This document shows, one piece after another, positions 24,817-46,900 of a DNA stretch of 64,000 nucleotides. Where the stretch lies: the NCBI GenBank assembly GCA_016177405.1, contig JACOVG010000021.1:14434-78433 (forward strand), given 5' to 3'. Position 1 is the first letter of the stretch. The number at the start of each line of letters is the position of its first letter. The notes under the pieces were generated by a model that saw only the letters and a program-made list of their open reading frames with translations, made no database searches and was not told the DNA's origin. Made by a program: the position numbers and the translations under genes. Source of the stretch: Candidatus Omnitrophota bacterium. Its GTDB lineage: Bacteria > Omnitrophota > Gorgyraeia > 1-14-0-20-64-10.

Positions 24817-24911
24817 GGCTTTAGGGCGACTCCTTCTTTTGTTGGTTGTTGGGTTCTGATAATAAGGCTTTAGCGCGACCGTTCGCGAGGGGCCTTACGA
24901 GGCGAAACCTT

Positions 24912-24941
24912 ATTATATAAGGAGACTCCCGGAGCCGTCAA
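24912..24941 (-). promoter_or_regulatory. Strong sigma70-type promoter candidate for nagB/DUF4954 (TTGACG-18-TATAAT), with the -10 element inside the palindrome CCTTATATAATAAGG
   Basis: On the minus strand the sequence reads cccTTGACGgctccgggagtctccttaTATAATaagg. The -35 overlaps the stop of the TPR gene. An AAGGAG RBS lies 9 nt before the nagB ATG, and a CA-rich leader (cccaacaaccaacaaaag) precedes it. Confidence 0.5.
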
Positions 24942-27766: not shown

Positions 27767-28657
27767 TTACTGCCGAACCACCCGAAGGTCCCGGTGAACG
27801 GTCAAGGTCAGCCCTTGGCCGCGGGACTTCTCCACCTGAAGCTGAACCTCCTTGAGGGGCAAGTAGCGGGTCGCCTGTCCGTCCACGGCGGCGACACGGT
27901 CGCCGGCGAGCAATCCCGCGCCCGAGGCGGAACCTCCCGGGTCCACCGCGGCCACGGTCAACCCCATCCTCTCCGTGGAAAACCGGAAGCCCGGCCAGGC
28001 AGGCTGCGCGGGGCCGGCGGGGATGAGTTCGATCCGCCGCGCGAGGGTGATCTTGGCCATCGACCCGCCGGGCCCCAGGAGGAGATACGCCGCCTCCCGA
28101 ACCGGCAAGAAGGCCAGCGACTCTCCCCAGACCGCCGTCAACCGGTCGCCGGCGGCGATTCCGGCGCGCTGGGCCTGCGACCCGGGCTCCACCGACTGGA
28201 CCTCGGGGTATCCCTCGCCGGCCTTCAACCGCAGGCCCCAGCGCGTCAAGAGCTCGCCGGACAAATCGGCGGACAGCGTAAGCGAAGGGACGCCGCGCTT
28301 GGCTTTGAGATCGGCCGCCCGGTTCAGGGCGTCATCGGCCTCCTGAAATTCCGGGTAAATCTGCAGGGCCTTGCGAAAGAGCCCCTGGGCAACGGTGAAA
28401 TCGCCGCCGGCCAGCGACCGGTTTCCCAGGTACAGGTAGTTGCGCTCCGGATCGTCAAAGAAGATCTCGTCAATCTCGCCGCGCGCGATCACCCGTTCAC
28501 CGTCCACGGTGCTGACCACAATCCTGTCCCGGTGTTCCTCCACCACCAGCCCCTTCAGCTCCTCGCCGGAGGTGAAGTAGATCGCGTCCGCGAAAGCGGT
28601 GGAAAGAAATAAGAACGACATTGCGAAGGCCCCAAGCAATCTTGTTTTCATTCGCAC
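27767..28657 (-). CDS. Secreted tandem-PDZ-domain protein
   Basis: Leader MRMKTRLLGAFAMSFLFLSTAFA. Two PDZ-like segments (VEPGSQAQRAGIAAGDRLTAVWG and VDPGGSASGAGLLAGDRVAAVDG) follow an N-terminal TPR-like helical region. Confidence 0.6.
   Translation of the reverse strand: MRMKTRLLGAFAMSFLFLSTAFADAIYFTSGEELKGLVVEEHRDRIVVSTVDGERVIARGEIDEIFFDDPERNYLYLGNRSLAGGDFTVAQGLFRKALQIYPEFQEADDALNRAADLKAKRGVPSLTLSADLSGELLTRWGLRLKAGEGYPEVQSVEPGSQAQRAGIAAGDRLTAVWGESLAFLPVREAAYLLLGPGGSMAKITLARRIELIPAGPAQPAWPGFRFSTERMGLTVAAVDPGGSASGAGLLAGDRVAAVDGQATRYLPLKEVQLQVEKSRGQGLTLTVHRDLRVVRQ
28617..28645 (-). repeat. Degenerate leader cassette copy (cgacattgcgaaggccccaagcaatcttg)
   Basis: Read directly from the sequence. 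Confidence 0.6.
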
Positions 28658-30899: not shown

Positions 30900-32086
30900 T
30901 CCTCCAACAGCTCTTCCTGGGTTTTACGGATAAAGATCAAATCATCCAGATAGACCCTGCCCTTCCCCGGGCGGTGGAAATTCACCACGAAAGAGCCCAT
31001 CTGCGTCCAATCCAGTTTACCAAATTGGGCAAGCGGTATCACCACTTCCTGCCAGCCGGCGGTGAGCCCGCCGGGCAGGAACTTCTCAATCGTTCCGGCC
31101 TTCACCGAATCCCCGATGGTGAGCCACGACTTGTCCGACAGGCCGATCTCGAAGGTCTCCCCTCCCTTTTCCCCGCGCGCCCAAAAGGAGAGGGCCTTGA
31201 AGGGGCTCAAATCGTAGTAGGCGCCGTCGATCTGGTTTAAGAGGGTGTAATAGCCGCACCAGCCGGTGGCCTGCTTGTCGAAATCGAGCCGGAGGGATCT
31301 GCCCTGCTCCCCCCGCCGGGACTCCAGGACCCTCTTCGCCAAACACACGGAGGGAGGCCTCTTATAGGTCCCGGTCTTGCGGCCCAGGAGATTGATGTCG
31401 CTGTGGTCAAAATCGTCCAGGAGCAGAAACCCCTGCCGCTGGGCGGGTTCCTGGACCGAAACCAGCGGCTCCGTGTCAAACCGCAGTCCGTCAATCCAGA
31501 AGGCGCCTTCCCCTTCCTCGTTGAAGTTAAAGACCAGGCTGTAAACGCGGCTTAGATCCACCCCGAAGAAATCCTCCAGGGGCACGCGGACCTCCTGCCA
31601 GTCCGTGGTGATGCCGCCGGGCAGATACCGGTGGATCGAGCCGATGAAAACAGCGTCCTCCCGCTTGTTGGAAATGGTGTCGTTCATGCCGATCTCGAAG
31701 GTTTCTCCCCCCCTGGCTCCCTTCACCCAAAAGCTTAACGCGGCAAAGCGGGACAGGTCCCCCAGCACGATGAGGTAGGCCCCGCAGAAAAAGGGGTCCT
31801 TCGCCCGCCGGTAGCGGTATCGAACGGCCCCCGGCGAGGCCGGATCCTGCTTCACCCTCTCGTCCAGATAACAGCCGTACTTCGAGGGCTTCATGGCGAA
31901 GCCGCCGGTCTTGCCCCTCTTGGCAAAGCGCTCCTCGGCCGGAAGGAGCTTCGTGCCCAGCGGCAGGGGGGCGGCTTCGTCGAGAGAAACCATCTCCGCG
32001 AAAACAGCGGTAAGCAGAAGGAGGGACGCTCCAAAAAGGGACACACCTCGGCAAGAGTGTCCCCAAATGGAGCGTCCCCTTTTCAT
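30890..32086 (-). CDS. Secreted protein with two tandem copies of the CBM-like module
   Basis: Copy 1 has ...LSFWVKGARGGETFEIGMNDTIS...WQEVRVPLEDFF...FWIDGLRFD. Copy 2 has GFLLLDDFDHSD..., GWCGYYTLL, LSFWARGEKGGETFEIGLSDKSW..., RVYLDDLIFI. The likely start is the ATG at 32084-32086 (MKRGRSIW...), overlapping the TGA of the upstream gene (ATGA); the track start of 32125 is probably too far upstream. Confidence 0.6.
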   Translation of the reverse strand: MKRGRSIWGHSCRGVSLFGASLLLLTAVFAEMVSLDEAAPLPLGTKLLPAEERFAKRGKTGGFAMKPSKYGCYLDERVKQDPASPGAVRYRYRRAKDPFFCGAYLIVLGDLSRFAALSFWVKGARGGETFEIGMNDTISNKREDAVFIGSIHRYLPGGITTDWQEVRVPLEDFFGVDLSRVYSLVFNFNEEGEGAFWIDGLRFDTEPLVSVQEPAQRQGFLLLDDFDHSDINLLGRKTGTYKRPPSVCLAKRVLESRRGEQGRSLRLDFDKQATGWCGYYTLLNQIDGAYYDLSPFKALSFWARGEKGGETFEIGLSDKSWLTIGDSVKAGTIEKFLPGGLTAGWQEVVIPLAQFGKLDWTQMGSFVVNFHRPGKGRVYLDDLIFIRKTQEELLEEWE

Positions 32087-34419
32087 TCGAGGGTCAGCTC
32101 GTTGAAGGTGGTCGGGTCGCCCCACTGGCGCTCGCCGGAGGTGGAGATCAGCGCCTTCTGGGGAAATTTGGCGTGGTCGGTGTCGGAGCCGTCAATCATG
32201 ACCCCCAGCCGGAAGCCCGGCTTGAACCGCTTGCTCGAGAGCACCTCCTCCTGGGCGGGAGAAATCTCCGGCGCCGGTCTCGGGCGGGGCGAAACCTGGC
32301 GGGGATCCACCCCCACCCGCTTGCCCAGGGTCTGGAACAGGAAGCCGCTGGGCAGACGGACCTCCAGCGTGTAGCCGTTGCCGGCGCGGGCGGCGCCGAT
32401 CCGGACGTCGGCCAGCGAGGCGGGGTCCACGGAAGGGACCCAGACCCAGATCTCCGGGGGCCGCTCGCTGAAGTTGCCCGGGCTCAAACCCAGCTGGAAG
32501 TCGTCCAGGGAATTGACCGCCTCGGTGTAGTCCCCCAGGAGATCCACATCCAGCCACAGCTCCACGTGGTCCCCCTGCCACAGGTCGCCGGCGGCCCACT
32601 CCTGAACCAGGGCATCGTCCGCCACCTCTATCGCCAGGTACAGGGCCTCCGGGCTCCACTGAAACGCCGCCTTGAAGCTCAAGTCCTGGGGCGATTTCCA
32701 GGCGCCGGCCCCGTAGACCACCTGGCCGCGATGGTCGAAGGTGTACCACCGGGCCCCTTCCCACTCGTCCAGGTTTCCGTCGGCGGCAATCGGAATGGGC
32801 GCGGGCCGGGCGGTCAAGGGCGCGACCTTTCCGGTCCTCTCGCGGGTGGGGACGTTGCGCCCCTTTTGAAGAAGCCGGTAGGAGTCGTAGGCGTGGACGG
32901 CAAGCCCCCCGAAGGAGGGCTCTCCCTGAAAGGCCTCCACCACCTGGGCCAGCTGGCGCTCCATCTCCTCCCAGCCCTCCTCGTGGAAGGTGTTGCGCCG
33001 CTTGCCCTGCGACATCTGGACCAGGTCCTGGGTCTCCACGCCGATCACCACCTTCTTGCCCAGCCGCTTGGCCGTCTCCAGGTGGAAACGGGCGTTCTTC
33101 ACGATGTCGACGGCGGAATCGTAATAATCCATGAGGGCGGCATAGTCCACCTGCTTCAGCAGACTGGCCTCGAACTCCGGCTCCCGGTCGTAGAAGACCG
33201 GGATCGCCAGGCCCATCTGGAAGGATCCTTCGGCGCCCTGCTCGCTGTTGATCAGTTTCCTCAAATCAACCATCAGCTCCACGAATTCCGCCTGGAGCTT
33301 GGCGCGGTCGCCGGTTTCCCAATCGGCGGTCAGATACGGCTCGATGTCCAGCGAAACGCCGTCGATACGCTCCTGGGCGGGGCGTGCGCGGTTGAAGGCG
33401 AGAAACCCCGAAACCCATTCCAGGACCCTGGGGTGGTACTCCTTCAAGGCCCAGAGGGGATTGCCCTGCAGGGCTTCCACATGAACCCCCGCCTCGTGCG
33501 CCTGGGCCAGAAACTGGGCAAGCTTGGCCTGATAATCGGCCGGCATTTCCAGGATGGGGCTCTCCCCGAGATAGACGAAGAGGGTTTCCAGGGCGGCGCG
33601 CCGGGCGAAATCCAGGAGATCCCTGCGCACCCTCAAGTCGTTCACCGGATCGTACTTCCAGACCCAGGAGAAGCGGGGGGCGCGCGGATTGGCCGCGGCG
33701 CGGGGCGCGTTCTCCTCCTGCACGCGCTCCACCCCCTCGTCGTAGGTGAAGGCGACGTCGTCCACGTAGACCGTCCCCCGGCCCTCGTACCTGAACCAGA
33801 GAACCAGAGAGCCCATCCGGGTCATGTCCATGTCGGTCCGCAGACCCGCCAGGGGCACCTTGACCTGCTGCCACTGGGTGGTGACCCCATCGGGCAGGAA
33901 GGCCATGATCGGCCCGGCAAAGATCGCGTCTATCTCGAGCTCCTGCATTTTCTCGTCGGCGAAGCCGATGTCAAAGCGCTCGCCCCCCTGCTCGCCCTTC
34001 ACCCAGAAGGTGAGGGCGTTGTGCCGGCTGACATCGATCCCATTGAGGAGGGTGTACCACCCGCACCAGCCGCCCAGCTTGGCGTACTCCAGCCGAAGAC
34101 AGGAGGAGCCGCCGCGGCCGGGCCGGGTGTCATCGGCCTTGGTGATCACCGTGTAGGAGGGCCTTCTGGCCCAAGTCCCCTGGAAGGCGTCCAGCCGGTT
34201 CTTGCGCTCGGCGAAGATTCCCTGGGTGGCGCCCACCTCAAAATCGTCCACCAGGATCGGCTCCAGGATTCGCGGAGCCGGCGGCGCGGGACGAGCGGGG
34301 GCGGGAGGCAAGGCGGGGGGCCGAGGAGAAAAGAACCGCGCGGCCGCCCATCCCGCGCCGACGGCCGCGGCCACAACAACGCAAATCAGGAGAATCTTTC
34401 TTCTCGGCATCGCCCCCAT
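32083..34419 (-). CDS. Secreted multidomain protein: CBM-like module + TIM-barrel GH-like domain + C-terminal CBM9-like (DOMON-like) carbohydrate-binding domain
   Basis: The likely start is MGAMPRRKILLICVVVAAAVGAGW (ATG 34417-34419) rather than the track start of 34641. Module motifs: ILVDDFEVGAT, GGWCGWYTLL, LTFWVKGEQGGERFDIGFADEKM, GTVYVDDVAFT. The central domain is paralogous to 28648..29556. The C-terminus (DGNLDEWEGARWYTF...LSFKAAFQWSPEALYLAIEVADDALV...LWQGDHVELWLDVD) resembles CBM9-like domains. Confidence 0.65.
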   Translation of the reverse strand: MGAMPRRKILLICVVVAAAVGAGWAAARFFSPRPPALPPAPARPAPPAPRILEPILVDDFEVGATQGIFAERKNRLDAFQGTWARRPSYTVITKADDTRPGRGGSSCLRLEYAKLGGWCGWYTLLNGIDVSRHNALTFWVKGEQGGERFDIGFADEKMQELEIDAIFAGPIMAFLPDGVTTQWQQVKVPLAGLRTDMDMTRMGSLVLWFRYEGRGTVYVDDVAFTYDEGVERVQEENAPRAAANPRAPRFSWVWKYDPVNDLRVRRDLLDFARRAALETLFVYLGESPILEMPADYQAKLAQFLAQAHEAGVHVEALQGNPLWALKEYHPRVLEWVSGFLAFNRARPAQERIDGVSLDIEPYLTADWETGDRAKLQAEFVELMVDLRKLINSEQGAEGSFQMGLAIPVFYDREPEFEASLLKQVDYAALMDYYDSAVDIVKNARFHLETAKRLGKKVVIGVETQDLVQMSQGKRRNTFHEEGWEEMERQLAQVVEAFQGEPSFGGLAVHAYDSYRLLQKGRNVPTRERTGKVAPLTARPAPIPIAADGNLDEWEGARWYTFDHRGQVVYGAGAWKSPQDLSFKAAFQWSPEALYLAIEVADDALVQEWAAGDLWQGDHVELWLDVDLLGDYTEAVNSLDDFQLGLSPGNFSERPPEIWVWVPSVDPASLADVRIGAARAGNGYTLEVRLPSGFLFQTLGKRVGVDPRQVSPRPRPAPEISPAQEEVLSSKRFKPGFRLGVMIDGSDTDHAKFPQKALISTSGERQWGDPTTFNELTLE

Positions 34420-34450
34420 CTTACCACAACCTCGACGCCGCCCTTTTCCG

Positions 34451-37400
34451 CTACAGCTGCGTTGAAACGGCGGCGGAATCTTCCAGGCCGGACTCAACGG
34501 AAGGCTCCTGCCCCGCGCTCGGCAGCCTCCTTTCCAGATCAATGCGGGCCGCCGCCGCCTGAAGACCCTTTTCCACCTCCAAGCTGACGATTTGCGGGTC
34601 GATCCCAAAGATGTCCAGGAACCCTCTAACGTGAAGCTCATTCAGAAAACCGACCGCCCTGAAACTGAAGGGATAGGTCGCGGCGAAAAGCCGGCGCAGC
34701 CACTCCTCCAATTCTGCCCTTGTCTTCTGCTTCTCCTCTCCTTCCGGGATTCCCTCGCCCCAGTCCGTCAGGTTCTCCACCAGGATTCTAATCTCCCTCC
34801 AGGAGGCCCTCTCCTCCGGCCGATTTTCCGGGTCGAACTCCATCCTTTCAATCACCATGCGGCGGATGATCCGAAAGAGGTAGCCCCACGGCTTGCTCTC
34901 CCGCAGGGTGGCCGAAGAGGTCCCGAGGATCAACGGACGCTTTTCTTCAAGCGATCTCAAGGCCCCATAGGGATCCAGGAGAATCGCTTTTTGCGGGTCG
35001 GCCGGATGGGGCAGCAGAACCATCATCTCGGCGGCCAGCATCAGCTTTCCCTGGTAGGGGTCGCCCTTCCCGGCGGCATGCTCGGTGATCCGCAATCCCG
35101 CCGGGTCCAGCAGGCCTCCCCAAAGCTCCACGATCTTTTCCTCGCTTCCCCTGCCAAAGGTGGGTTGTTTCAGTCCCGCGTCTTGGGCCAGGCCAGGGAA
35201 AAGCGCCCGCGGGTCGGACACGCCCAAGACTTGACACAACCCTTTGATCTTGGGCGCCAGGCGCTCCAGGCGCCAGGCCTCCTCCGGGCTTTTCGCCTCC
35301 GGCAATAGATTGATCTCCTCCTGAACCTCCCAGGCCTCTTCCTTCTCCGCCACCAGCACGAGGTCCAGATCCTTAAAGGCCCGCTCGGCTCTGCCCCCTT
35401 CCGCCAAAAGACTTAGCACGCTTCCACCGTGCAGCCCAATCCGGAAGAGCCCATTTTGATGAAGCATCTGCAGGAAGCGCTTCGCCGGGTGATAGGCGAA
35501 CCGCCTTAAGTCCATCTCATAAAGACCATCGGCCAGCGGCACGACGGCCTGATGAAAGAGCCGGGAGCGAACCACGAACTGGCTTATGGCGAGCCACCCT
35601 TGAGGATCCTGCCGGAATTCCGTCGGATACCCTATCAGGGGAGCCAGCGGCCCCCCCGGCCCCTGCAGCATCCAAACCGGCAGGGAGTAGCCGCGGATCT
35701 CCGGATCCATCACCGGCGGAACATTGAGCCGGAGGGTTCGGGGGTCCAGCAGCCAGGCCAGATCATCCCAGGCCGCGTCGTCCCATTGGTCCACCCCTTT
35801 CAGGACCAGCCTCATCTGCCGGTCCCTCAAGAAAAGCCAAAGCCCTTCCGGCAGCCACACCTCCCTTAACAGGTTGAGGGAACCCCCTTCCGCGCTCAAG
35901 TAGTGGACTCCCGATCCGCTAAGCTCCAGCACAGCCGCCTTCGCGGCCCTCGCCGTTGGGCGGATGGTTTCCTGGACAAATCTCCTGTAGCCTTCAAAAG
36001 GGGCGCCGGAGCCAGCCGGCGAAGCGACAAGCTCCATCCTGCCGGAGCCCAGCCAGCGGAGCTCCAGGCCCCAAACTCCTTTCAGGGGAGGAAAAGGCTC
36101 TCCCCGCTGCAGGGCCTCCAGATCCACCGTGCCGATCTTAGAAAGGAGAGAGGAGATTTGCCTTGAGAGGGCTGGATCGCTCTTTACCTCGTCGGGAACG
36201 TCGAGGTGAAACACCCTTCTTTCCTGGAGGGATTCCTCCAACCGCGCCAGGGAGGCATCCGCCTCTATTCCTCTTGGAGGAAGGCGTCTCAATCTGGATT
36301 CATAGAGATCAACCTGGTTGGGAGAAGGAAGGCCGCCCAGCATCACCCGGTCGGCTTCATCTCCAACCGTGGAAGAAACAAAGCTGTTGGCCAGGGTGTT
36401 TCGGTTGAGGTCCAGAGGGACTCCCGCTCCCTGCCCGCGATAACGCTCCAGCCGCTCGCTGAATCCGCTCTGAACCGAAGGGATCATCAGCTCGCTCAAG
36501 CCCGGCCTCGTGCTTCCCAGCACCACGTAATCCGGCCACTCGAATCGTTCCCGGAAAATCGATCGGGTCTCCATGAGCCAGACGGCCAAGGCGATTCCCA
36601 GCTCTCTGCCGGATTCCCAAATGGCCGTCTTGGCCGGATTCTCCCCTCGCTCTTTTTCAGGCCTGTTCGCGGCAGCCACGAGCCCGCCCAGCGTCAGTTG
36701 ATCGGCCTTCAAGAGCTCCCTGGCGCGCGCCAGGATCCTGGCGATGCTGACCCTATCCTCCAGGTCCTGCTCCCCAGGGGCCAGGGTGGGATGAAAACCT
36801 TTCGTTTCCCTGGCAACATAACGATAGTCGGGGCTCCCCGGGTTTCCGGTGAAAATCAGATGGTGGGGCGCCTCGCTGTGGTAAAGGATCTCCGGCTCTC
36901 CCTGAAAGGATTTTCCGTTGACAACCATCTGGGCGGCAATGCCGTTTCCAATGTGAACAAACAACAGATTGTCTACTCCCGGACAAGTCCCCCTTAGGCC
37001 TACTTCCCCCCTTGCCCCTGCCCGCGCGTTGGAGACCACATCTACCTCCAGGCGGCCCAGGGAGGGATCGCGTTTGCCCTCGTAGAGTTGGTCCAGTCTT
37101 TTTTGGACCTCTTCCTTGAAAGAGAATCCTTTCGGGAACACGGGGAGCCAGGAGATTCGCTCAACCAGCGCGCCGTCCGAATCCACAAAGCCGGGAACAG
37201 AAAAATAGACGTACATGACCCTGTCGGGCCCATACCGCTCGACCACCCGCCGGATCGCCTGGACGAGGCGCTCGACAATCTCGCCGGGCGCGTCGCTCCG
37301 GTCCGGTTTGAGAAAAATGCGTTCGTGCTCGGCCGGCCCCCAAAAGCCCTGCGGGATACCGGCCCGGAAGACGATTGCCTGGTCCTCCCCGACGCCCATC

Positions 37401-40400
37401 TTGCCGACGACGGCCACAGGCCCTTCATAATCCGCCACGCGGGCCACGTGGCGGCTGGCCGACGACCGCTCCTCCAGGCCGGCACCGAGCGGAGCCGAGG
37501 GGCCGGCACCGCCGGAAACGGTGCCGGTTTCGTAGCCGGCGAGCGCGGCGACAAGCGGCCGGCCTATCTGCCCGCGCTGTTTCGAACCCAAATCGGCGGC
37601 GGCTTTTAAGATGGGATGCGTTCCAAACAGCTCCTGCTGGGTGTCGGCCGACCCGCCCCAGAGACTGCCGGAAACGGCGCCCGCCTCAAGTAGGAGCCGG
37701 GCCATCTCCCGCGCCGTCACATGGGCCGTCACCCAAAGGAGGATGATCTGGCCGTCGTCTCTTACCCCGATGGCCGACATCGCCCCGGCCCTTTCCCGCG
37801 GGTTCCAAACCAATTCGTTGGGCCGCACCTTAAGAGGGATCCCGTCTTCGCGAACGCTCCAACGAAGCTGTCCCGAGACGTCCTTCCCGTCGAGGACAAG
37901 CGGCATGCCGGAGACGGCATGGAGAATCTCGGAAGGCCGCGCTTCCCGCGCCACCGCCCTTCCCCCCTCAATCTGGGCGTCCACCAGCTCTTCGATGCCG
38001 GGCGAATCTCCCCGGTTGGAACCGAACCGCAAGGCCGCCATCCGGGGCGGGCCCGGCTCCAGGACAAAGGCCCAGAAGGAGTCGTCGTATCCCCTCTCGC
38101 GCAGCGTTTGGACATCCAAGGGGTATTTTTCCCAAGCCCAGTGAGGCCGGATCACCCGGCCGAGCGCCACCAGGAAGCCGTAGGGCTCCTTGAGATTATG
38201 CTGGCCGCTGTTGGAGAGATAAACCCTTTGGGCCCCCGGCGGCAGACCCTCGGGAGGCGCCTTCGCTTTCTCCTGCCAGGCCTCAAGCGTGAGCCCGGCC
38301 CTCCTGAACCTCTCCAGAAGCGCCGGGTCAACCGGCCCGGTCTGGAACTCCGGAAAAGCTTCTCCTTCCACCTCCGGATCCCAGGCGGACACGAGCTTCA
38401 ATCTGGAAAGATCCGGCAGAACCACCCGCCCAGCCGGCTCCCCCTTCCCATCGAGGACCGGCCGGACAACCCCGATCGGCCCCCCCAGAGCCCCCTGCCA
38501 CGCCTCCTCCTTCCCCAGCCGCAGCTCCTCCAACCCCGCGTCGGGTTTGAGAAGCTCCGCGCTTTGCTCTCCTGTAATCCTGATGAGCAAGAACCCCGTT
38601 TTCTCAACAAAGGCCTTATCGGCAAGCAACTCCTTGATGAGAACGGTGGTGAGGAAGGTTTTATCCCTTTTGAGCCGGCCTTGGAACGCTTCCCAGGCCT
38701 TTCGGTCCTTCACAATGACCACCAGGGTATGGTCCTTGCGAAATCGGCGGTGGTCGGCGCGCCAATTGCTTAAGGCAGCTTGGCCCCGCTGGATCTGGCC
38801 AACAGATTCGGCCGTAGGCTGGATGTACCAAACTCCCTCCTCGCCTTGGAGGTCATCTTCCACCCAGCTTGTCGCGAGGGCGCCGTCAGGAACTCCGTCC
38901 AGCGTCAGGTTGAGCCGCTCACCGTTAAGCCGAACCTCTTTCACCGAAACCCCGGGACTGCCGCCCTCCTTGGCTTGCGCTGAAGCCGTCCATCGCGGCG
39001 CCTGGCCGGCCACCTTCATCTCCCGATCTGGCAAGACGTTGAGGTAGTCGTCGGCCGGCAGCCCCTCCTGAAGGAGATCGTCCAGCACAATCCCCTGGTG
39101 ACCATTGGAGGCGACGGCCAGCATGGTGTTGAAGAAACCTCGGATGTCCAGGGTGGCGTAAGGAGCCCCGCCGTAGATCTCGGCGAGGCGCAGCATGGAA
39201 CGGATCAGCTTTTGGGCCAGGGCGTAGGCCCACTCTCTTTTTTCAAGGTCGGCCGCGTAATAGCCAAACTGAACCAAGCGGAAGATGATGCTCCAGGTGA
39301 TCTCCGGCTGAAGCATCCTGTCGTAATTCTCGTTGGGTGGAACATGGGGATCCTTAAAATTCGGGTCAAAGAAGATGACGCCTGTAAACTCCTCCTTGGG
39401 ATCAACCCCTTGGGGAAGGTGGCTGAACCCTTGGGCCTTCAGGGTTCTCAAGAAATGCCGCTCAACATTTTTGAGTTCGTTCTCGGCCATCTCCGGGTCG
39501 TAGGCGCCCTGGGGGGACCAAACCTCGTTGTCGGCAGCCCAGGAAAGGTTGAGCGTTCCATCCGGATCCATGCCGGTCGCCCAACGCCTCTTACCGGGCA
39601 GCCCCTGGATGATCTGCGCCACCCTCTCATGTTCCTGCCGAACACCCTTCTCCAGATTGCCTCCGGCTTCCAACTCCAGGCGCCTTAACTGGGCCTTCAC
39701 CTTTTCCGGCGTAAGAAGCAATCTCTTGCTTTCCTTCATCGCCAGCTCATGCCTGGAGGCAATCTCTCTAAGAAACGGCGATTGGAAATCTGCGGTTTGG
39801 TTGGCCCGGTAGGCCAGCCGGAGGGCATCGATGTAATCCCAGTTGTGCTCGGTGGTGATCTCTTCCCGCTGGAGATTGGATTTCTCAAAATCGGACTCGT
39901 TGCCGGTTCCAAAGCCGGCCCGAAACAGGCCGTAGCGGGGATCGGCCGGATCCGTCACCTGCTGGGCGAAGGCCGTCTCCGCCAACTTCGTGTTGATCCC
40001 ATTCAGGAACTTCGGATCTTTCGTTTCCAAGGCCAGGAGGTAGAGCCCCTTAAAAACCCAGGCGGTTCCGCCGCTCATGGCCCGGGCATCGGTGAAGGTG
40101 GTCCCGTAAGAGAAGCGCCAGCCCCCCTTTTGCCCCTTGGCCTCCATCTGTCGGGCGATGTCGATCATCCGACCGGCCAGCCACTGGGCCTCTTCCATCT
40201 CTCCCCGGCCCACCAGGTATTTGAGCGTCACCCCCATGTCGTAGGCCCAGAAGCGCTCCACCCCCAGATATCGATCAAAGGGATGCCGGGGATCCGACTG
40301 GTAGCTTTGGTATCCTTGGACTCGAAAACCCTCCGGGGCCTTGACAGGACCTTCCATCTTCTGGGCGGTAAAGAAATCTCTGGTCTTCTGCCTCCAGAGG

Positions 40401-40948
40401 GTCATCCGCTTGACCAGCCCGGCATCCAGGTTTTCGATGAAGCGCCGCGTGGGAGGTTGGGCCGGCCCAGGAGAGGGGGCCTCTTGCCCCAAGATGGGCC
40501 TGGGTAACCCAAGGAAGGCCGCGCCGGCCCAAAAGAGGGCGCGCCTGCCAAATTCCCTTCGATCCATCCAGCCGGCGGGCGTTGGCTGGCCGGAACGGAG
40601 GGCCTCTTCAAGCCCCACAGCCACGGGATTGCGAAGTCGGTCGTCCGCGGGCTGGATCTGCTTTAAAGAGCCGGCGAAGTCTGAAACCTCGTCCGAGATG
40701 ACGGATGGCAGGCCGGCCTTTTGGGCCTCCAGTTCCTGAAGGGCCTTCTCCTCCAGCTCAACGTTCCACCCCTTGGACCAGGAGTGGCTGGAAATACCCC
40801 CTGCTGTTTGCTTCTTTTCCGCGGCGGAGGGCGGGGAATCCTCCCCGTCAGCCGCCCTCGCGGGAAGAGGCAGAGAGGTCCACTCAAAGGTGAGCGCCAG
40901 AAGAAGCGCCAGGAGACGGCGGGATCTGCTTCGCATTCCCTTAGGCAA
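34451..40948 (-). CDS. Giant secreted multidomain protein (2165 aa). Contains a signal peptide, an N-terminal helical (alpha/alpha)6-glycosidase-like region, a phosphodiester-glycosidase-like domain, a ROK/ASKHA sugar-kinase-like domain, and a C-terminal Pol-beta-type nucleotidyltransferase motif.
   Basis: Continuous 6.5 kb ORF. The PDG-like domain (NPRERAGAMSAIGVRDDGQIILLWVTAH...REMARLLLEAGAVSGSLWGGSADTQQ) is paralogous to the C-terminus of giant 1. ROK/ASKHA-like motifs: VAVVGKMGVGEDQAIVF... and LLFVHIGNGIAAQMVVNGKSFQGEPEILYHSE. NTase motif: IGLHGGSVLSLLAEGGRAERAFKDLDLVLV, near 35.4 kb. Confidence 0.7.
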   Translation of the reverse strand: MPKGMRSRSRRLLALLLALTFEWTSLPLPARAADGEDSPPSAAEKKQTAGGISSHSWSKGWNVELEEKALQELEAQKAGLPSVISDEVSDFAGSLKQIQPADDRLRNPVAVGLEEALRSGQPTPAGWMDRREFGRRALFWAGAAFLGLPRPILGQEAPSPGPAQPPTRRFIENLDAGLVKRMTLWRQKTRDFFTAQKMEGPVKAPEGFRVQGYQSYQSDPRHPFDRYLGVERFWAYDMGVTLKYLVGRGEMEEAQWLAGRMIDIARQMEAKGQKGGWRFSYGTTFTDARAMSGGTAWVFKGLYLLALETKDPKFLNGINTKLAETAFAQQVTDPADPRYGLFRAGFGTGNESDFEKSNLQREEITTEHNWDYIDALRLAYRANQTADFQSPFLREIASRHELAMKESKRLLLTPEKVKAQLRRLELEAGGNLEKGVRQEHERVAQIIQGLPGKRRWATGMDPDGTLNLSWAADNEVWSPQGAYDPEMAENELKNVERHFLRTLKAQGFSHLPQGVDPKEEFTGVIFFDPNFKDPHVPPNENYDRMLQPEITWSIIFRLVQFGYYAADLEKREWAYALAQKLIRSMLRLAEIYGGAPYATLDIRGFFNTMLAVASNGHQGIVLDDLLQEGLPADDYLNVLPDREMKVAGQAPRWTASAQAKEGGSPGVSVKEVRLNGERLNLTLDGVPDGALATSWVEDDLQGEEGVWYIQPTAESVGQIQRGQAALSNWRADHRRFRKDHTLVVIVKDRKAWEAFQGRLKRDKTFLTTVLIKELLADKAFVEKTGFLLIRITGEQSAELLKPDAGLEELRLGKEEAWQGALGGPIGVVRPVLDGKGEPAGRVVLPDLSRLKLVSAWDPEVEGEAFPEFQTGPVDPALLERFRRAGLTLEAWQEKAKAPPEGLPPGAQRVYLSNSGQHNLKEPYGFLVALGRVIRPHWAWEKYPLDVQTLRERGYDDSFWAFVLEPGPPRMAALRFGSNRGDSPGIEELVDAQIEGGRAVAREARPSEILHAVSGMPLVLDGKDVSGQLRWSVREDGIPLKVRPNELVWNPRERAGAMSAIGVRDDGQIILLWVTAHVTAREMARLLLEAGAVSGSLWGGSADTQQELFGTHPILKAAADLGSKQRGQIGRPLVAALAGYETGTVSGGAGPSAPLGAGLEERSSASRHVARVADYEGPVAVVGKMGVGEDQAIVFRAGIPQGFWGPAEHERIFLKPDRSDAPGEIVERLVQAIRRVVERYGPDRVMYVYFSVPGFVDSDGALVERISWLPVFPKGFSFKEEVQKRLDQLYEGKRDPSLGRLEVDVVSNARAGARGEVGLRGTCPGVDNLLFVHIGNGIAAQMVVNGKSFQGEPEILYHSEAPHHLIFTGNPGSPDYRYVARETKGFHPTLAPGEQDLEDRVSIARILARARELLKADQLTLGGLVAAANRPEKERGENPAKTAIWESGRELGIALAVWLMETRSIFRERFEWPDYVVLGSTRPGLSELMIPSVQSGFSERLERYRGQGAGVPLDLNRNTLANSFVSSTVGDEADRVMLGGLPSPNQVDLYESRLRRLPPRGIEADASLARLEESLQERRVFHLDVPDEVKSDPALSRQISSLLSKIGTVDLEALQRGEPFPPLKGVWGLELRWLGSGRMELVASPAGSGAPFEGYRRFVQETIRPTARAAKAAVLELSGSGVHYLSAEGGSLNLLREVWLPEGLWLFLRDRQMRLVLKGVDQWDDAAWDDLAWLLDPRTLRLNVPPVMDPEIRGYSLPVWMLQGPGGPLAPLIGYPTEFRQDPQGWLAISQFVVRSRLFHQAVVPLADGLYEMDLRRFAYHPAKRFLQMLHQNGLFRIGLHGGSVLSLLAEGGRAERAFKDLDLVLVAEKEEAWEVQEEINLLPEAKSPEEAWRLERLAPKIKGLCQVLGVSDPRALFPGLAQDAGLKQPTFGRGSEEKIVELWGGLLDPAGLRITEHAAGKGDPYQGKLMLAAEMMVLLPHPADPQKAILLDPYGALRSLEEKRPLILGTSSATLRESKPWGYLFRIIRRMVIERMEFDPENRPEERASWREIRILVENLTDWGEGIPEGEEKQKTRAELEEWLRRLFAATYPFSFRAVGFLNELHVRGFLDIFGIDPQIVSLEVEKGLQAAAARIDLERRLPSAGQEPSVESGLEDSAAVSTQL

Positions 40949-43900
40949 GACTTTCCAGGTAGGTTTGAACTTCCTCCAGGCCGACCGCGATCCCGGAGAG
41001 GTTGTAGATCACGACTCCATGCCCCTCAAGAAATCTCAACAGCGCCTCGATATCCGCGACAACGGGCACGGTCTGAAGAATCACCCCGGGCAGCCCCGCG
41101 GGAAGATGCCGATTGAAATGCTCGGCCAGGGCCTGCTCGGCCAACGCCCTGTTCCCCCTGTGCCATTCCAGGGCCTCAACGGCATAGCGGGTGCTGGGAG
41201 TGCCGCTGGCTTCAAACAGCTCCTCAAGTGCCGCGGCTTCTTCGGCGGTCTTGGTCAGCACCGCCACCGGCGCGAGCTGGGCGATGAAGGGAGCCAGCCG
41301 CCAGCTCTGCGGGTTATCAAAAAGAAAGATTTTCGCTCTGGGACCTTCATTCACAACGCTAAAACCAAAGATTCCGTCGGAATCGAGAACGCCCAAGGCA
41401 GCCCTCTCCAGCGCGGTGAGCTGTCCCAGGCGCTTGGACAGCTCTTCCAATCCCGCCTCCCCTTTGCGTGAGGTTTCTTCCAGCTCTCGGGCCTTCTGCT
41501 TTAACTGGCCAACCAAAGCCCAGAGCTCCCCATTTTCCTTCTCCAACCCCCCAACCTTCTTTTTCAAATCTATCTTTTCGCCCTCCCAATCCCCGAGATC
41601 CGCCCACCTCTTCACTTGATGGTTAAACGCTTCTTCGAAGGCCGCTTGCGCTTCTAGATGCCCTCTCACATCGCTCTGGAGCTCTCCTATCTGGGTCTTG
41701 AGGGCGGCGGCCTCCTCCTGGTGGGCTCGCTGCCTCTTTCGAATCTCTTCCTTAATAGCCCTCCGGACTCCGGCAAGCTGGCCCTCCAGTTTGGCCACCT
41801 GCTCTTGATGCGCGTTACCCTCTTCTCGAGCTTCGTTCTGCAATTTCAAGACTTCTCTTTCCAGCTCTTCTTGAGCTTCCTTCGCTGAAAGCAACAGGCC
41901 CTCGCGCGCCTCCAGCGCCTCAACCAGCTCCGCGAATTCTACCTGCCACTCTCGCGTAGTCTCATCGGCTTGCCGGAGGGCTTCCTCACGGGCACGGGCA
42001 GCCTGCACAGCCCGCTCCATCTGCTCCCTTAATTCCTGCAATTCGGGCGCCCGGTCCACCGGCGCTGCCTCGGGCGCCGCAGTAACAGGCTCCACCTTCG
42101 GCGGAACCGGGCCCTCCCCTGGCAACAGAGCGGGCCATATCCCGGCTTCCTTGAGCTTGGCTTCAAGAAGAGATCTCTTCTCCTCATCCGGCTTCTCCGC
42201 CCAGCCTGCCGCCTGGTCCGCACGCAGATCTTTCAGAAGCCCGAAGGCCTGTTGACGCCTCTGGGGGTCATCGAGAAGATCTTGTGGAACGCCCCAGCGG
42301 CCAAGGGTCCACTTCTCCAAAACTTCTGAACCCTCCTCCAGCCCGGCACCAGACGCGGATCTCCGAATCTCATCCAGGACCTGGCGCATGGCGGGTATCT
42401 TATTCAGCTCATCCACCAAGTCCAGAAAGTTTGCAAAGAACGCTTTCGGATCGCTCTTTAACGCCTGCAAGATCTGATCCTTAGAAGGCAAGCCCGGATT
42501 CGCGTGAACCGCCGCCTCCAGGGCCTGCTCTAAGGTCACCGTTGAATGGACAGCGCCGGCAGGAGCGGCGCCGCGCGTGTCGGCAATGGCGTAGGCCAAG
42601 CCCTGCCAGGGGTCTATCGGCGTGAGGGGCTTGTTTTTTTGCAGCTCCGGGACAGTATGGTCTCTAAAACGAGCCACCACAGGCGCCACTTCGGTGTCCC
42701 ACGCCTCCAGGGCTTCCTTCAGCCGGACCATCCGCCGCAAGAGCTGTTGGGTTAAATGGAGTCTCAAAACGGGTTTGACCCCCGTGGCAACCTGCGCAGC
42801 CAATTGTTGGCGCTGGGCTCGATCCCTTTGGCTATCCCCCAGCTTCTCGATGGGTCCGTACTTTCCACCCATGAAGTCGTTCATGCTCTTATTGCCTGTG
42901 GAAGCTCGGAGCTGGGTGTTGACCCCGTCCAGATGTGTCCTTAGTTGATCTGCGGTCATTCCGATCAACTGATCAAAAGTCCCGCTCCCTTGGGCTGGCG
43001 GACCCAGAGATGGACCCATGGCCATGGGACGGGACAGCAGGCGAGCTGTTTCTCGCAGATCCTTTTCCAGCGCCTTGCGCCCCTCCGGGAGGAAATCCGG
43101 CTCCATCAGCAGGGCGTAGTTGCCCTCGGCGTTCGAGTCTCCCGGCTTCTCGTTGACCCATTCGAAGTTCAGATGGCTCAACGTCCAGCCGCTTAAGACG
43201 TTGGAGAGGTTGGAGACCCCGTGCGCCAGGGCGGGCCAGCGCATCTGGAGCGTGTCGAAGGCCTTCAGCCCCCAGAGGTTCTCCTGCAAATGGTAGGGGG
43301 TGCTCAAGAAGCTGTCTTTATAGCGGTTCCCCGCGTTATCGGAAATCACCGAGGCATCTCGGTCTACCGTCAGGGTGACCGCCTGGGCAGCCGGCCCTTG
43401 CCCTATCAGGACCGAAAACTTACTTCGACCGGGAACTTCAGCGACCCGCGCAATTCCTGTGACGGTTACCTCGTGCCTGTAACCGTCCAAGGTGACCAAG
43501 ACCCCCTCATGCGCCGACTGGTCGCCTGTAAAGATCGGCAGGTTGAACATCCGCTGGTTGGCGTCTCTCAAGGCCTCACCCAGGCCAAACTCCGCCGCGC
43601 GAGAAAGGGCCGAATCCAACTGTTTGAGTTCGGCCGAAAGGTGCTGCATCTCCTGCTGGAAGATGGCCGCCGCCGGAGGAAGCGGGCCGCCGGGTGGGTT
43701 GGCCCCCCGCCGCCTGCGGAACCTTTGCCCTGTGACGAGCTCGTACCATATCTCCAGCGGGCCTCCTGTTATTCCCCGGAACTCCTCGACCCCCTCGTAG
43801 CCGCCCAGGGTATCCTCGGCCTTCAGGAGCTGTTCCAGGATGGCGTAAGCACGCCGCCAGGCCAGCACATTGAAGGCCGAGATCGGCGCCAGGTCAGGCG

Positions 43901-46900
43901 GAACCTCAAGTATCCGGATGGCCTGCAGGATGGTAAGGGGCGGCGCATCCGGCGGAATGACTCCGCCTCTCCACCACAAGGGAACCTTGGTGAAATAGCC
44001 CGTGCCTTCCGCCAAGGGAAGACCCAGCTTGAGCTGCCAGGTGGAAGAGTCCCAGAATCCGGCGAACTGGTTGGGCGTTCTGCCGAAGAGCCGCGCCAAG
44101 ATCCGGATGTCCCGGCTGTAAGGAGGCCCAGAGGCGCGCAGAAGCCGGAAGAGCCCCGCGATCACCGCGCCCAGCCCCACCGAGATGGTAAGCGCGAACC
44201 CAAGACCCAGCGCCGGGAAACCGAAGGGAATGAGGACGAAACCGATGAAGGCCGCGAGCCAACCCATCAAGATCGGCTGGCGGCTTCCGGTCATCCAGAG
44301 GGAAGGCAGGAAAAGGTTTGCCTTGGCGGCGATCAGCCCGGAGACGATGCCAAAGAGAATCGAACCCGCCAGCCAAAAGCTGGGAGCCAGGAAAAGAATG
44401 CCCAAAGACGCCGCGAGGCCGGCGTAACCCGCAAAAACTCGCCGGGGAGTTCGGGAAAGGGGGTCGGCGGCAGCCAAAAGATAGACCAAGGCACCCACCA
44501 TGCCAACGCCGACAGAAGCGGCCAGGATGAGCCCCATGGCTCCCAAAACCCCGCCAAGGGCAGGCAGGGTCGGCCAAATGGCCGGGGCAAGCCCAAGAAA
44601 TTTCGCCAGCCCCAGAAGGGTAACTCCGGAAAGCACCCCTACCGCCAAGCCCCTGGGGGCCCGGCGATAGCCAGAGAACAATCCACCACCGGAGGCCGGG
44701 GGCCAAGCGGTAAGGAAAGCCGTGGCGACACCGGCTATGGCGCCTGCCGCCAGGCCTCCGCCGGCTCCAAGGAAAAGCGCCGCCAGACCTCCAACCATCA
44801 GTCCTGTCAGAGCCCCGGTGACGGCCCTGTGGCCCGGGTCCCGAACGTCGTAGAGGTGCAGACGGCCCTGTCTGAATTCGTCAGAGAAATGCTGGGTATC
44901 CGGCATGGCCGCCTGCGCTTGAGGAACGGTTTGGCCGGTCTCCTGCGCCCACTGCCGGACAAAGTTGGTGTCGCCCACTCGATGGTGGAGCCCCGCTAGA
45001 ATGTCTCCCCACCGCGCCCCGGTGTTGGCCCGCGTGTCTCTTAGCATCGCCATGAGGGTCCCGGAATCCTGGTGAAGGGGGGAGAGAGATCGCAGATAGA
45101 GCTCGAAGGGAATCTCGGGCTCTCCTTTTTGGTGCCTTTGATTCATCTCGTCCGCGTATTCATTGACCACAATTTCGCCCAGACCGCCCGCGCTTAATCC
45201 CAGCAGTTCATCAATAACCCCGCCCAGAGTCACCGGCTCGGGCTCCCGCCCGTAGCGCTTGACCCTGAACCCCCATGCCTTGGGGCGTTCCACGGCGATC
45301 TGGAGCAGCCGGAAATAGGGCCAGGCCGGATCGGCCGTATCGGTGCCGTGGGTCAACTCGAGTTGCGAAGAAATCTCTTCGCTGACATGGGTGTGCAGGA
45401 AGACATTGGCGAAGGGGTGGTGCTTCAATCCCACCAGAAGGCCGCGGGCCGCCTGTTCGGCCGCGGTGATGGCTTGTGGATTGCCTCGGATATTCGCTCG
45501 AGTCAAGCCGGCCGGAACCGGTTCCTTGGCCTCGTCGGCCTCCCTGGTGTTCAGGGCCTTGCCCTGGCCCTGCAATCTGAAGAAGGAAGCGGCAGTCACC
45601 GCCTCTCGAAGGATTGCCCGAACCACCCTCGTCCCCCACCAGCGCGAGAGGCGGTCCTCGGCCGGCAATTGAGAGGAGGAGGTGTCATGCCCTCTCCTGT
45701 TCTCCGGCGAGTCGGCCAGAAGCTCCAGATGGAGGGCGGCGCGGTCGCCGGCCATCCCCCGGTAAGACTCGAGCGTAACGTCCAAGTGCCTCTTGACGCT
45801 GACGTGGGTCTCTCCTGGAAACTCATACTGCTCCTCGTTGGGACCGGGCCAGGCCAACCGGAGAGGCTCCTCAAGCCCTGTTCTGTGGAGGGCGAGGCGG
45901 CCGCTGTCCATGTACTGCCAGCCCCGCAGAGCGGCCAGCTTCATCCCCTTGCTCAAGCTCTCCGGATCGTCCCGCATGATAAACCGGTAGTCGGTTCGCG
46001 ACGGCAAGAGCTGAACGACCGTCCTTAGCCCATCCCCTTGAACTTTCTCGCCCTTTTCATTTACATGGTAAGTGTCCACCTTGTAAGGAAGGGAAAGACC
46101 TGGGGTAGACCACCCTTCCAAGTAGGTGATAAAGCGCCCGTCCGACCCCGCAAAACCCGGAGAGACATCGGTGTTGAGCTGGCGAATCAATCCTCCATCT
46201 CGCGCGGGATCCACGGGCCGAATCCCGATGATGGGCGGGCTCTGCCCCATGCCGGTCCACTTCTCGAGGTAAGGGTCCTCCATGAGCCGCCAGAGTCCGG
46301 AGGCGACCGCGTTCCTCTCCGTGCTTAGCATGAGCCGCTCGGCCAAATCGGTAAACTCCTCTGTCTTGTAAAACTTCTCGTGGACCAGCTCGGCCAGCGG
46401 AAACATGAGGCGATACCCCGCCCACTCCCGCAGCTTGGTGAGGATATCCCCTGTGTACCAGCGCCCTTTCTGGTCCAAGGCGTTGACCCATTCTGTCTCC
46501 GGCTCGGAAAGGGTCATGACCGCTCCGGAGGAGTCGCGCACCAGGAAGAGAACGTCGGTCAAGCCGTGGAGTTTGGAGGGAAGGGTGTCCAGAATCGTTC
46601 GAAGAAATTTCTTTTTGAATGGCTCCTTTTCCTCCGCCTTTGGCTTATTGAGGATCCCGGTGAGCCGGGATTCTGCGGACTCATGATTAAAAACGGTCCA
46701 ATGGCCGCTTCTCATCCAAAAGCTCAGCAATTCCTTGGCGATGCTGTTGGCGGGGTTGGCTGGATCCAAGAGGGCTCTTTGTAAATCGCTCGCCCTAACA
46801 TTTGGAGCATAGGCTTTGGCTTGAGGACTTAAGGTGTCAGAAATTCTTCTGTCTTCCGTCAGCCACGTTAAAAATCTTTTCGCATATTCATGATCTGGAT

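Follow-up and report, generated by a model that had tools for sequence, protein, structure and literature searches.

Omnitrophota are ultra-small, apparently predatory bacteria. The DNA analysed here is a stretch of 64,000 nucleotides (nt) from a Candidatus Omnitrophota bacterium (assembly GCA_016177405.1, contig JACOVG010000021.1, positions 14,434 to 78,433 of the forward strand), which we call the window and within which all coordinates are counted. It contains four very large open reading frames (ORFs), all on the minus strand. Our subject is one of these, designated giant 2, in which two modules of the kind that use nucleoside triphosphates (NTPs), one degenerate and the other apparently intact, share a polypeptide with a secretory leader.

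13911-21974, minus strand: giant ORF of 2,687 amino acids (aa)
34451-40948, minus strand: giant 2 ORF, 2,165 aa
40941-53957, minus strand: giant ORF of 4,338 aa
54084-63893, minus strand: giant ORF of 3,269 aa

Giant 2 is a single ORF, 34451..40948 on the minus strand, its 2,165 aa being counted from a TTG start; this numbering is used throughout. The NCBI version, 'MAG: hypothetical protein HYS41_04525 [Candidatus Omnitrophica bacterium]', matches it at 100% identity and starts four codons later, with the ATG at 40936 (2,161 aa). This ATG lies 4 nt past the stop codon of the upstream 4,338-aa giant (40941-53957), and the two genes are therefore placed in one operon. The strings from which a ROK/ASKHA-like segment and a nucleotidyltransferase (NTase) had been proposed in the original prediction, LLFVHIGNGIAAQMVVNGK..GEPE and GLHGGSVLSLLAEGGRAERAFKDLDLVLV, were both found in giant 2, at residues 1328-1352 and 1838-1866, respectively. 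From the N- to the C-terminus the protein is built as follows, relatives being given P numbers and PDG standing for phosphodiester glycosidase.

40850..40936, minus strand: Sec-type signal peptide (residues 5-33), by inspection
residues 34-110, minus strand: short segment of ~80 aa with an SHSWSKGW motif that is kept in P0002-P0004
40604..40618, minus strand: first delimiter, V-G-L-E-E (residues 111-115), closing the short N-terminal segment
40481..40567, minus strand: second signal-like hydrophobic stretch, MDRREFGRRALFWAGAAFLGLPRPILGQEA (residues 128-156)
38954..40441, minus strand: all-alpha N-domain (residues 170-665), common to P0002-P0004
38669..38953, minus strand: small domain (residues 666-760), with a repeat in P0003
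38525..38539, minus strand: delimiter A-G-L-E-E (residues 804-808), N-border of the PDG module
37499..38521, minus strand: PDG/NAGPA-like module (residues 810-1150), from BLASTP to a paralogue
37469..37483, minus strand: delimiter A-G-L-E-E (residues 1156-1160), separating the PDG module from the ROK-like one
36281..37468, minus strand: module A, a divergent and degenerate ROK/ASKHA module (residues 1161-1556), from profile comparisons
36260..36271, minus strand: degenerate delimiter G-I-E-A (residues 1560-1563), aligning with the AGLEE of homologues
35549..36259, minus strand: module B1 (GWGLEL ... FLxDR ... LDPRTL; residues 1564-1800), with 8 homologues
34529..35548, minus strand: module B2, a class II (CCA-adding/poly(A)-polymerase/TENT5-like) NTase (residues 1801-2140), catalytic motifs intact
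34478..34489, minus strand: variant delimiter G-L-E-D (residues 2154-2157) at the C-terminal end, with the stop 8 residues on

The identity of module A emerges from its relatives. When residues 1130-2165 of giant 2 were searched exhaustively with HMMER against 1.84 billion cluster representatives, 44 matches were obtained; module A is present in ~35 of these, at no fixed position and in proteins ranging from 350 to 6,200 aa. The giant 2 copy by itself falls below the threshold of Pfam ROK (PF00480), both within the whole protein (E 0.086) and as an isolated module (E 0.0028, 17.6 bits against a cut-off of 22.9). At the level of family profiles the ROK assignment is nonetheless sound: Pfam ROK is matched by 17 of 19 aligned module-A members (best E 1.8e-14), and the module-A profile detects both the ROK glucokinase 3vgk in the PDB (E 1.3e-13) and, by hhalign, the ROK regulator encoded in the window itself at 820-2022 (probability 98.2%, E 5.5e-14). 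The proposed ROK/ASKHA-like segment is thus borne out through its family. Module A has the same length and motif order as ROK kinases and regulators (3vgk, Mlc/NagC), with an ASKHA fold at profile level.

The roles of the PHOSPHATE-1, PHOSPHATE-2, ADENOSINE and catalytic motifs in ASKHA and ROK proteins are established. Each of the following is retained in 22-24 of 24 relatives, and all are gone from the giant 2 copy.

PHOSPHATE-1: family GK(I/V)GGT; giant 2 GKMG-VGE-DQ
catalytic base: family HDGT; giant 2 SNAR
PHOSPHATE-2: family GTG; giant 2 GNG
conserved loop: family DRTSGP; giant 2 DRVSIA
ADENOSINE: family G(S/G)GVAQIG; giant 2 GSTRPGLS

Because every nucleotide and catalytic motif of its own family has been lost, including the PHOSPHATE-1 GGT, the catalytic Asp, the PHOSPHATE-2 GTG and the ADENOSINE GGV of ROK proteins, module A of giant 2 is predicted to be a pseudokinase; as with Mlc/NagC, it would be a non-kinase ROK. 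The module-A family has peculiarities of its own. In giant 2 the module is embedded in a signal-peptide-bearing multi-module protein, and throughout the exported family a Lys replaces the PHOSPHATE-1 Asp, GGT, HD, GTG and GSGV otherwise being retained (homologues P0005-P0027). The zinc signature CxCGxxGCxE is found neither in giant 2 nor in any aligned module-A member, an absence shared by some ROK kinases such as the polyphosphate glucokinases. Partial motif loss is also seen in module A of P0010 and P0011.

Module B1 has 8 homologues, lying mostly ahead of B2 and standing alone in P0029, P0030, P0034 and P0039; searches of Pfam, NCBIfam and PDB sequences gave no family for it. For B2, seven sequences at only 28-34% identity to giant 2 were aligned. 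The invariant positions are G44, G47, G48, D66 and D68 (h-G-x-x-G-G ... D-x-D), V146, D198 (LLDPYG), F231 and R236 (FRIxRRM); giant 2 keeps the invariant residues as G1841, G1842, D1860, D1862, D1992, F2025 and R2030, and has S1843 at the variable Ser position. A third acidic position after V146 (E1941 in giant 2, on the next predicted strand) is E in 5 of 7 sequences, D in one and A in one. The proposed G-G-S-x(9-13)-D-L-D motif is real and present in all 7 homologues as G-G-[SNAG]...D-[LH]-D, the Ser position being occupied by S, N, A or G across the family, although in giant 2 it departs from the classic spacing: 16 residues separate the Ser from the first Asp, as opposed to 11-14 in the homologues (14 in P0028). 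With this longer spacer, B2 otherwise conforms to the Pol-beta pattern hG[GS]x(9-13)Dh[DE]h followed by a third carboxylate.

Comparison at the level of structure agrees. The B2 profile detects the human CCA-adding enzyme in the PDB at a marginal E of 6e-4, by way of two motifs in collinear order. The 'DPxGGxxDL...R..vG' and basic-helix motifs, along with GG..DxD and the third acidic residue, come in the same order as in human TRNT1. An AlphaFold2 (AF2) model of B2 reached a predicted local distance difference test score (pLDDT) of 84.5 and a predicted template modelling score of 0.81, and a Foldseek search with it retrieved FAM46C (E 2.3e-4), a member of TENT5/FAM46 (PF07984), as well as the human CCA enzyme (4x4w, probability 1.00). 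Structure prediction followed by Foldseek, a check that had been suggested, thus upholds the NTase, and the model displays the head and neck fold of class II NTases. In common with this class (CCA-adding enzymes, bacterial poly(A) polymerase, A-adding enzymes; PF01743), B2 has GG..DxD and, on a strand further along, a third acidic residue. It differs from the CCA enzymes in that none of the 7 members has a Pfam match, ~70 residues of helix are inserted ahead of the strand that follows DxD, the spacer of giant 2 is 16 residues long, no motif D (EDxxR) is conserved in the aligned region, no counterpart of motif B (RRD) was recognised by inspection, and the tRNA-binding body and tail domains are absent. 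B2 is preceded by B1 and, among the cluster representatives searched, occurs only in signal-peptide-bearing proteins. Because the family-invariant residues are retained and the fold evidence agrees, B2 looks catalytically competent, as judged from alignment and model. Hence the suggestion that both NTP-dependent domains are dead binding modules holds for the ROK module, in which all family motifs have been lost, but not for the NTase, in which all invariant residues are present.

It could be argued that giant 2 is a non-catalytic surface scaffold, its ROK-like and NTase modules persisting as ligand-binding remnants (for sugar, and for nucleotide or RNA) within a glycan-binding or adhesive part of an amino-sugar locus. 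The clear degeneracy of the ROK-like module, the Lys in place of the PHOSPHATE-1 Asp throughout the exported family, the lack in the NTase of motif D, a recognised motif B and a Pfam match, and the richness of the locus in carbohydrate-binding modules (CBMs) would all accord with such a role. Set against this, 7 sequences with only 28-34% identity differ little or not at all at GG, DxD, the third acidic residue, LLDPYG and FRIxRRM, which argues for selection on catalysis, and we regard a purely structural role as quite improbable.

The PDG-like domain is likewise identified through a paralogue. The giant 2 copy scores below the gathering threshold of Pfam NAGPA (PF09992; E 1.3e-3, 19.4 bits against 25), the family of the phosphodiester glycosidase or 'uncovering enzyme' domain. 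Residues 802-1198 of giant 2 align with residues 2202-2591 of the giant at 13911-21974 (BLASTP, E 6e-18), and this paralogue does pass Pfam NAGPA (E 2.1e-13, 51.3 bits). Both paralogues start at AGLEE and end at GLEE, the AGLEE at 804-808 of giant 2 aligning with that at 2205. The original prediction had described the domain as paralogous to that of 'giant 1'. This stands if the giant at 13911-21974 is meant, but not for the adjacent giant: BLASTP found no similarity of giant 2 to either 40941-53957 or 54084-63893, and paralogy with these was rejected.

The all-alpha N-domain (residues 170-665) shares 54-59% identity with P0002-P0004, and Pfam, NCBIfam and PDB sequence searches returned nothing for it. 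Foldseek hints of an alpha/alpha-toroid, to designs, were non-significant and nothing was concluded from them. The small domain (residues 666-760) recurs in P0003 at 1417-1513.

We now turn to where these modules reside. By inspection and a Kyte-Doolittle scan, giant 2 begins with a basic n-region (MRSRSRR, +4), a hydrophobic h-region (LLALLLALTF..LPLP) of the 7-15 residues usual for Sec leaders, and a small-x-small site at ARA/AD. The Sec leader proposed for giant 2 is therefore supported by inspection, and equivalent leaders are present in P0002-P0004. The ROK-like and NTase modules also occur, in changing order, in some 40 further large proteins, of which nearly all carry a signal peptide. 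Among 28 multi-module homologues of full length, ~25 start in signal-peptide-like fashion, a basic n-region leading into a hydrophobic core that is closed by a strikingly conserved P-x-x-A-(L/F)-A-L-R. Immediately behind this leader, with no other hydrophobic segment in between, lie module A in P0008 and P0018 and the B1-B2 block in P0005, P0009, P0022 and P0032; in P0028 and P0031 B2 lies ~90-140 residues behind it. Stand-alone ROK-like relatives of 350-450 aa (P0021, P0023, P0042, P0043, P0045 and P0046) have no leader, the first beta-strand of P0021 and P0043 having been wrongly flagged by a crude signal-peptide heuristic and both being excluded by eye. An extracytoplasmic location would thus be the straightforward reading for the module family, and a cytoplasmic body appears unlikely for it because modules follow signal peptides directly and leaders are near-universal in the large homologues.

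The leader end itself, P-x-x-A-(L/F/W)-A-L-R-(P/Q), is strongly conserved in P0005, P0008, P0011, P0013, P0015, P0016, P0018-P0020, P0022, P0026-P0029 and P0032 and appears again in L001 at 16080-19787 and 24862-26096, with GLEE usually 5-80 residues beyond it. It may constitute a lineage-specific sorting signal. Giant 2 and P0002-P0004 carry the variant P-x-P-A-(R/F)-(A/S)-A.

Topology is complicated by the second hydrophobic stretch of giant 2 (residues 128-156), which starts 13 residues past VGLEE and consists of DRREFGRR followed by a core of only ~12 residues, the basic residues thus lying on its N-side. Residues 116-178 do not match the TAT-signal models (TIGR01409/PF10518) and the stretch is internal, so it was rejected as a twin-arginine translocation (Tat) signal; Met128 was also rejected as the start of a separate signal peptide, this Met not being kept in P0002-P0004. 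Past the N-terminal region, giant 2 has no transmembrane (TM)-like segment. In P0002, two internal segments located immediately or 6 residues past GLEE (~142-165 and ~823-850) match the TAT-signal models, with scores around the cut-offs (TIGR01409, 16.5 and 17.9 bits against 16.7; PF10518, 22.2 and 19.6 bits against 22.7). Consecutive segments of signal polarity are hard to square with one uncleaved chain.

The original prediction had offered a membrane anchor with a cytoplasmic body as one option. In this arrangement the N-terminal segment and residues 128-156 form a hairpin, or the signal peptide is cleaved and residues 128-156 stop transfer; ~100 residues are then left outside while the ROK-like and NTase modules lie in the NTP-holding cytoplasm. 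Two hydrophobic segments ~100 residues apart, kept so in P0002-P0004, would suit it, as would a 2026 Omnitrophota preprint in which 46% of long proteins have TM segments only, with their bulk predicted to be cytoplasmic, and the suspicion, voiced by West-Roberts et al. (10.1101/2023.11.21.568195), that overlooked TM segments lie behind 'extracellular' metabolic domains. The core of the second segment, however, is short, and its basic residues, lying N-terminal to that core, give it signal rather than stop-transfer polarity. Moreover, in at least 6 proteins homologous modules lie directly behind a signal peptide without any second hydrophobic segment, and PDG/NAGPA domains, like the neighbouring CBM proteins, are typically extracytoplasmic. 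We therefore hold anchoring to be unlikely for giant 2, for which residues 128-156 leave it conceivable, and more so for the family as a whole.

The modules of giant 2 are bounded by a recurrent motif. GLEE is the commonest tetrapeptide in the four giants, occurring 19 times in 12,459 aa against 0.87 expected and a maximum of 5 in 2,000 shuffles, in the form [A/S/T/V]-G-L-E-E. Its sites are as follows.

Giant 2: 40604-40618, 38525-38539 and 37469-37483
ORF 13911-21974: residues 60, 68, 452, 812, 1081, 2205 and 2534
ORF 40941-53957: residues 83, 1783, 2694, 3872, 4169 and 4326
ORF 54084-63893: residues 2338, 2944 and 2994

GLEE is absent from the CBM proteins downstream of giant 2. Among 94 instances in giant 2's relatives the preceding residue is Ala in 54, and the flanks are rich in Pro, Ala, Ser and Leu. 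GLEE lies within 4 residues of the projected module-A border on the N-side in 11 of 23 cases and on the C-side in 8 of 20, the chance expectation being ~6% even with a window of 25 residues either side. At the position of the 1156-1160 delimiter of giant 2, 11 of 23 module-A instances have G[LMQ]EE, and the GIEA of giant 2 aligns with an AGLEE at the C-border in 8 of 20. GLEE also closes B1 where B1 stands alone. Several proteins end 8-15 residues past GLEE, the giant at 40941-53957 and P0002 resembling giant 2 in this respect, each with a delimiter 9 residues before its end. In another Omnitrophota genome (GCA_023818545.1), neighbours of P0005, namely a 1,235-aa PP2C-like protein and a 2,108-aa GH77+GT5 protein, carry both an ALR-type leader and AGLEE; nearby housekeeping genes have neither.

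In the DNA under the GLEE motifs, such as that at 37469-37480, the 12-mer GGCCTGGAGGAG, which contains GGAGG, underlies 8 of the 19 GLEE sites (~1.3 expected from codon usage), and GGAGG itself underlies 12 of 19 (~36% expected). GLEE as a DNA or RNA signal, that is an internal Shine-Dalgarno sequence with internal starts, was rejected: 7 of 19 sites encode the motif with synonymous codons that lack GGAGG, and start codons show no constant spacing from it. For these reasons we take GLEE to be mainly a protein-level motif. Pausing of translation at the borders of modules, or a recent duplication, might lie behind its codon bias. No description of a GLEE or AGLEE motif, or of an Omnitrophota polyprotein, was found in the literature, and we propose AGLEE as a candidate processing or hinge site.

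It is tempting to speculate on the consequences of cutting at such a site. Cleavage before or during export would turn giant 2 into a polyprotein whose signal-bearing pieces are exported singly, while those without a signal (PDG, ROK-like and B1-NTase) stay behind as cytoplasmic enzymes. The TAT-like segments of P0002 right after or 6 residues past GLEE, the signal-like stretch of giant 2 13 residues past VGLEE, and the presence of AGLEE at module borders all lend themselves to this view. A single uncleaved chain could not insert all three of its consecutive segments if each has signal polarity. That Omnitrophota giants are cleaved, at points not yet known, has already been proposed (10.1101/2023.11.21.568195). 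Conversely, a signal-like stretch follows only ~8 of ~94 GLEE sites (6 by threshold and the 2 in P0002). GLEE occurs 30-110 residues past every N-terminal signal peptide, such that cutting in the cytoplasm would strip the signal of all its cargo. A cytoplasmic PDG domain would be unusual, and no protease has been identified. Cytoplasmic processing thus seems to us improbable. A related proposal is that AGLEE would be the processing site of secreted Omnitrophota polyproteins, at which a dedicated protease frees the modules, including the intact class II NTase as an effector on prey RNA or nucleotides, the pieces of some relatives (P0002) having Tat signals of their own. We consider this doubtful, albeit worth stating; if true, it would be the first sequence rule for the cut points of Omnitrophota giant proteins.

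Taken together, these observations lead us to favour, tentatively and with slightly less than even confidence, a reading of giant 2 as a Sec-exported, AGLEE-segmented multi-module Candidatus Omnitrophica protein. Its body would lie outside the producer's cytoplasm, where the dead ROK module, kept as a sugar binder, may act on amino-sugar glycans together with the N-domain and the PDG-like domain. Such a role fits a locus in which CBM proteins are accompanied by a sugar ABC importer, a ROK regulator and a NagB-like gene. The NTase, being intact, would work where NTPs are available, most plausibly inside a prey or host cell or at its breached surface, and the AGLEE linkers would serve as hinges or proteolytic release sites, as in multi-effector toxins. 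In toxins of the MARTX type, a huge exported chain bears independent enzymatic modules, some of which need nucleotides of the target cell, and linkers are cut for release. The likeness is one of concept and not of membership, and Pfam and NCBIfam scans of giant 2 revealed neither RTX repeats nor a cysteine protease domain.

Several points weigh against this reading. Periplasm and medium are normally devoid of NTPs, and the window revealed no machinery for delivery. Residues 128-156 could act as a stop-transfer segment or hairpin, leaving the body in the cytoplasm. B2 matches no Pfam family, and its motifs B and D, as noted above, have no recognised or conserved counterpart. Most of the exported ROK-like relatives retain their ATP motifs, which is unexplained if they are mere binding modules. 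The N-domain and B1 are without an assigned fold, the AF2 model of the former, built from 4 sequences, being poor (pLDDT 51.9). Finally, no protease was identified for the cleavage that is proposed at AGLEE.

Giant proteins are a recognised feature of this phylum. According to West-Roberts et al. (2023; 10.1101/2023.11.21.568195), Omnitrophota giants are tied to predation and cell-wall degradation and lie beside carbohydrate importers, the presence of cytoplasmic-type domains (glycolytic, kinase) in proteins predicted to be extracellular is an unresolved puzzle, and their export, their cutting and the enzymes outside the cell are named as open questions. Giant 2 shares with the Archaeovorins and Dockerin-type giants described there the phylum, the multi-domain build, the carbohydrate-import neighbours, the cytoplasmic-type domains and the suspected cleavage. 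It does not belong among them: these are of at least 30,000 aa, with numerous TM helices and SecA-DEAD or dockerin repeats, whereas giant 2, at 2.2 against at least 30 thousand aa, has no SecA-DEAD domain or dockerin repeats, no multiple TM helices, and no C39 or S8 peptidase domain. The passages of that paper found by term searches make no mention of ROK-like modules, class II NTases or AGLEE, and the word 'nucleotidyltransferase' is absent from the paper. The 2026 preprint discards internal signal-peptide calls as chunking artefacts.

The original prediction had also considered a new organisation. Cytoplasmic-type enzymes in apparently exported Omnitrophota giants are already known as a general phenomenon for the phylum; the literature searched contained no account of the specific modules or of an architecture delimited by AGLEE. 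What is new here is the split verdict on the two NTP-type modules, a class II NTase family linked exclusively to signal peptides, and the AGLEE delimiter, which renders the cleavage question testable. Indeed, with one NTP-type module degenerate, the other apparently intact and its modules bounded by one motif, giant 2 offers a small and tractable case. Should AGLEE prove to be a hinge or a site of cleavage, it would provide a rule for dissecting giants into units, to the benefit of structure prediction, expression and proteome re-analysis.

The window as a whole is a locus of amino-sugar or glycan-acquisition type. Beyond the giants it encodes a tetratricopeptide repeat (TPR) protein and, directly downstream of giant 2, four CBM30/CBM9/CBM11 proteins, together with the following (HTH, helix-turn-helix).

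820-2022: ROK-HTH regulator
5028-6362, minus strand: permease with an N-terminal CBM30-like domain, an unusual fusion
6320-8605, minus strand: fused solute-binding-protein/permease of 761 aa, an unusual fusion
22065-24044: DUF4954
24049-24816: NagB-like gene
27767-28657, minus strand: double-PDZ protein with a weak match to the N-terminal domain of S41 peptidases
32083-34641, minus strand: mechanically called ORF of 852 aa (CBM9/CBM30/CBM11), sharing 190 nt with giant 2 at the latter's 3' end

The real start of the ORF at 32083-34641 is probably near its residue 77 (MGAMPRRKILL...), ahead of a signal-anchor-like segment and downstream of the giant 2 stop. The giant at 13911-21974 contains an ARMT1-like damage-control phosphatase domain (E 1.6e-41) and DUF4922 (3.8e-20) in addition to its NAGPA domain (2.1e-13) and a hydrophobic leader, and is a second case of cytoplasmic-type enzymes in an apparently exported chain.

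The C-termini of the giants are hydrophobic, 8-9 residues past GLEE or GLED: ..AVSTQL and ..YLESLA in giant 2 (34451-34480) and ORF 40941-53957, and ..AAVLVAA in P0002. These tails resemble ligands of PDZ domains or of tail-specific proteases. The ORFs at 40941-53957 and 54084-63893 have no Pfam domain at all; in the former, TM-like helices cluster within 2090-2330 and 3045-3250, and residues 345-375 form a signal-like stretch, RFARRGLKWASLAAVGLAAFLGFSHGAAAEP.

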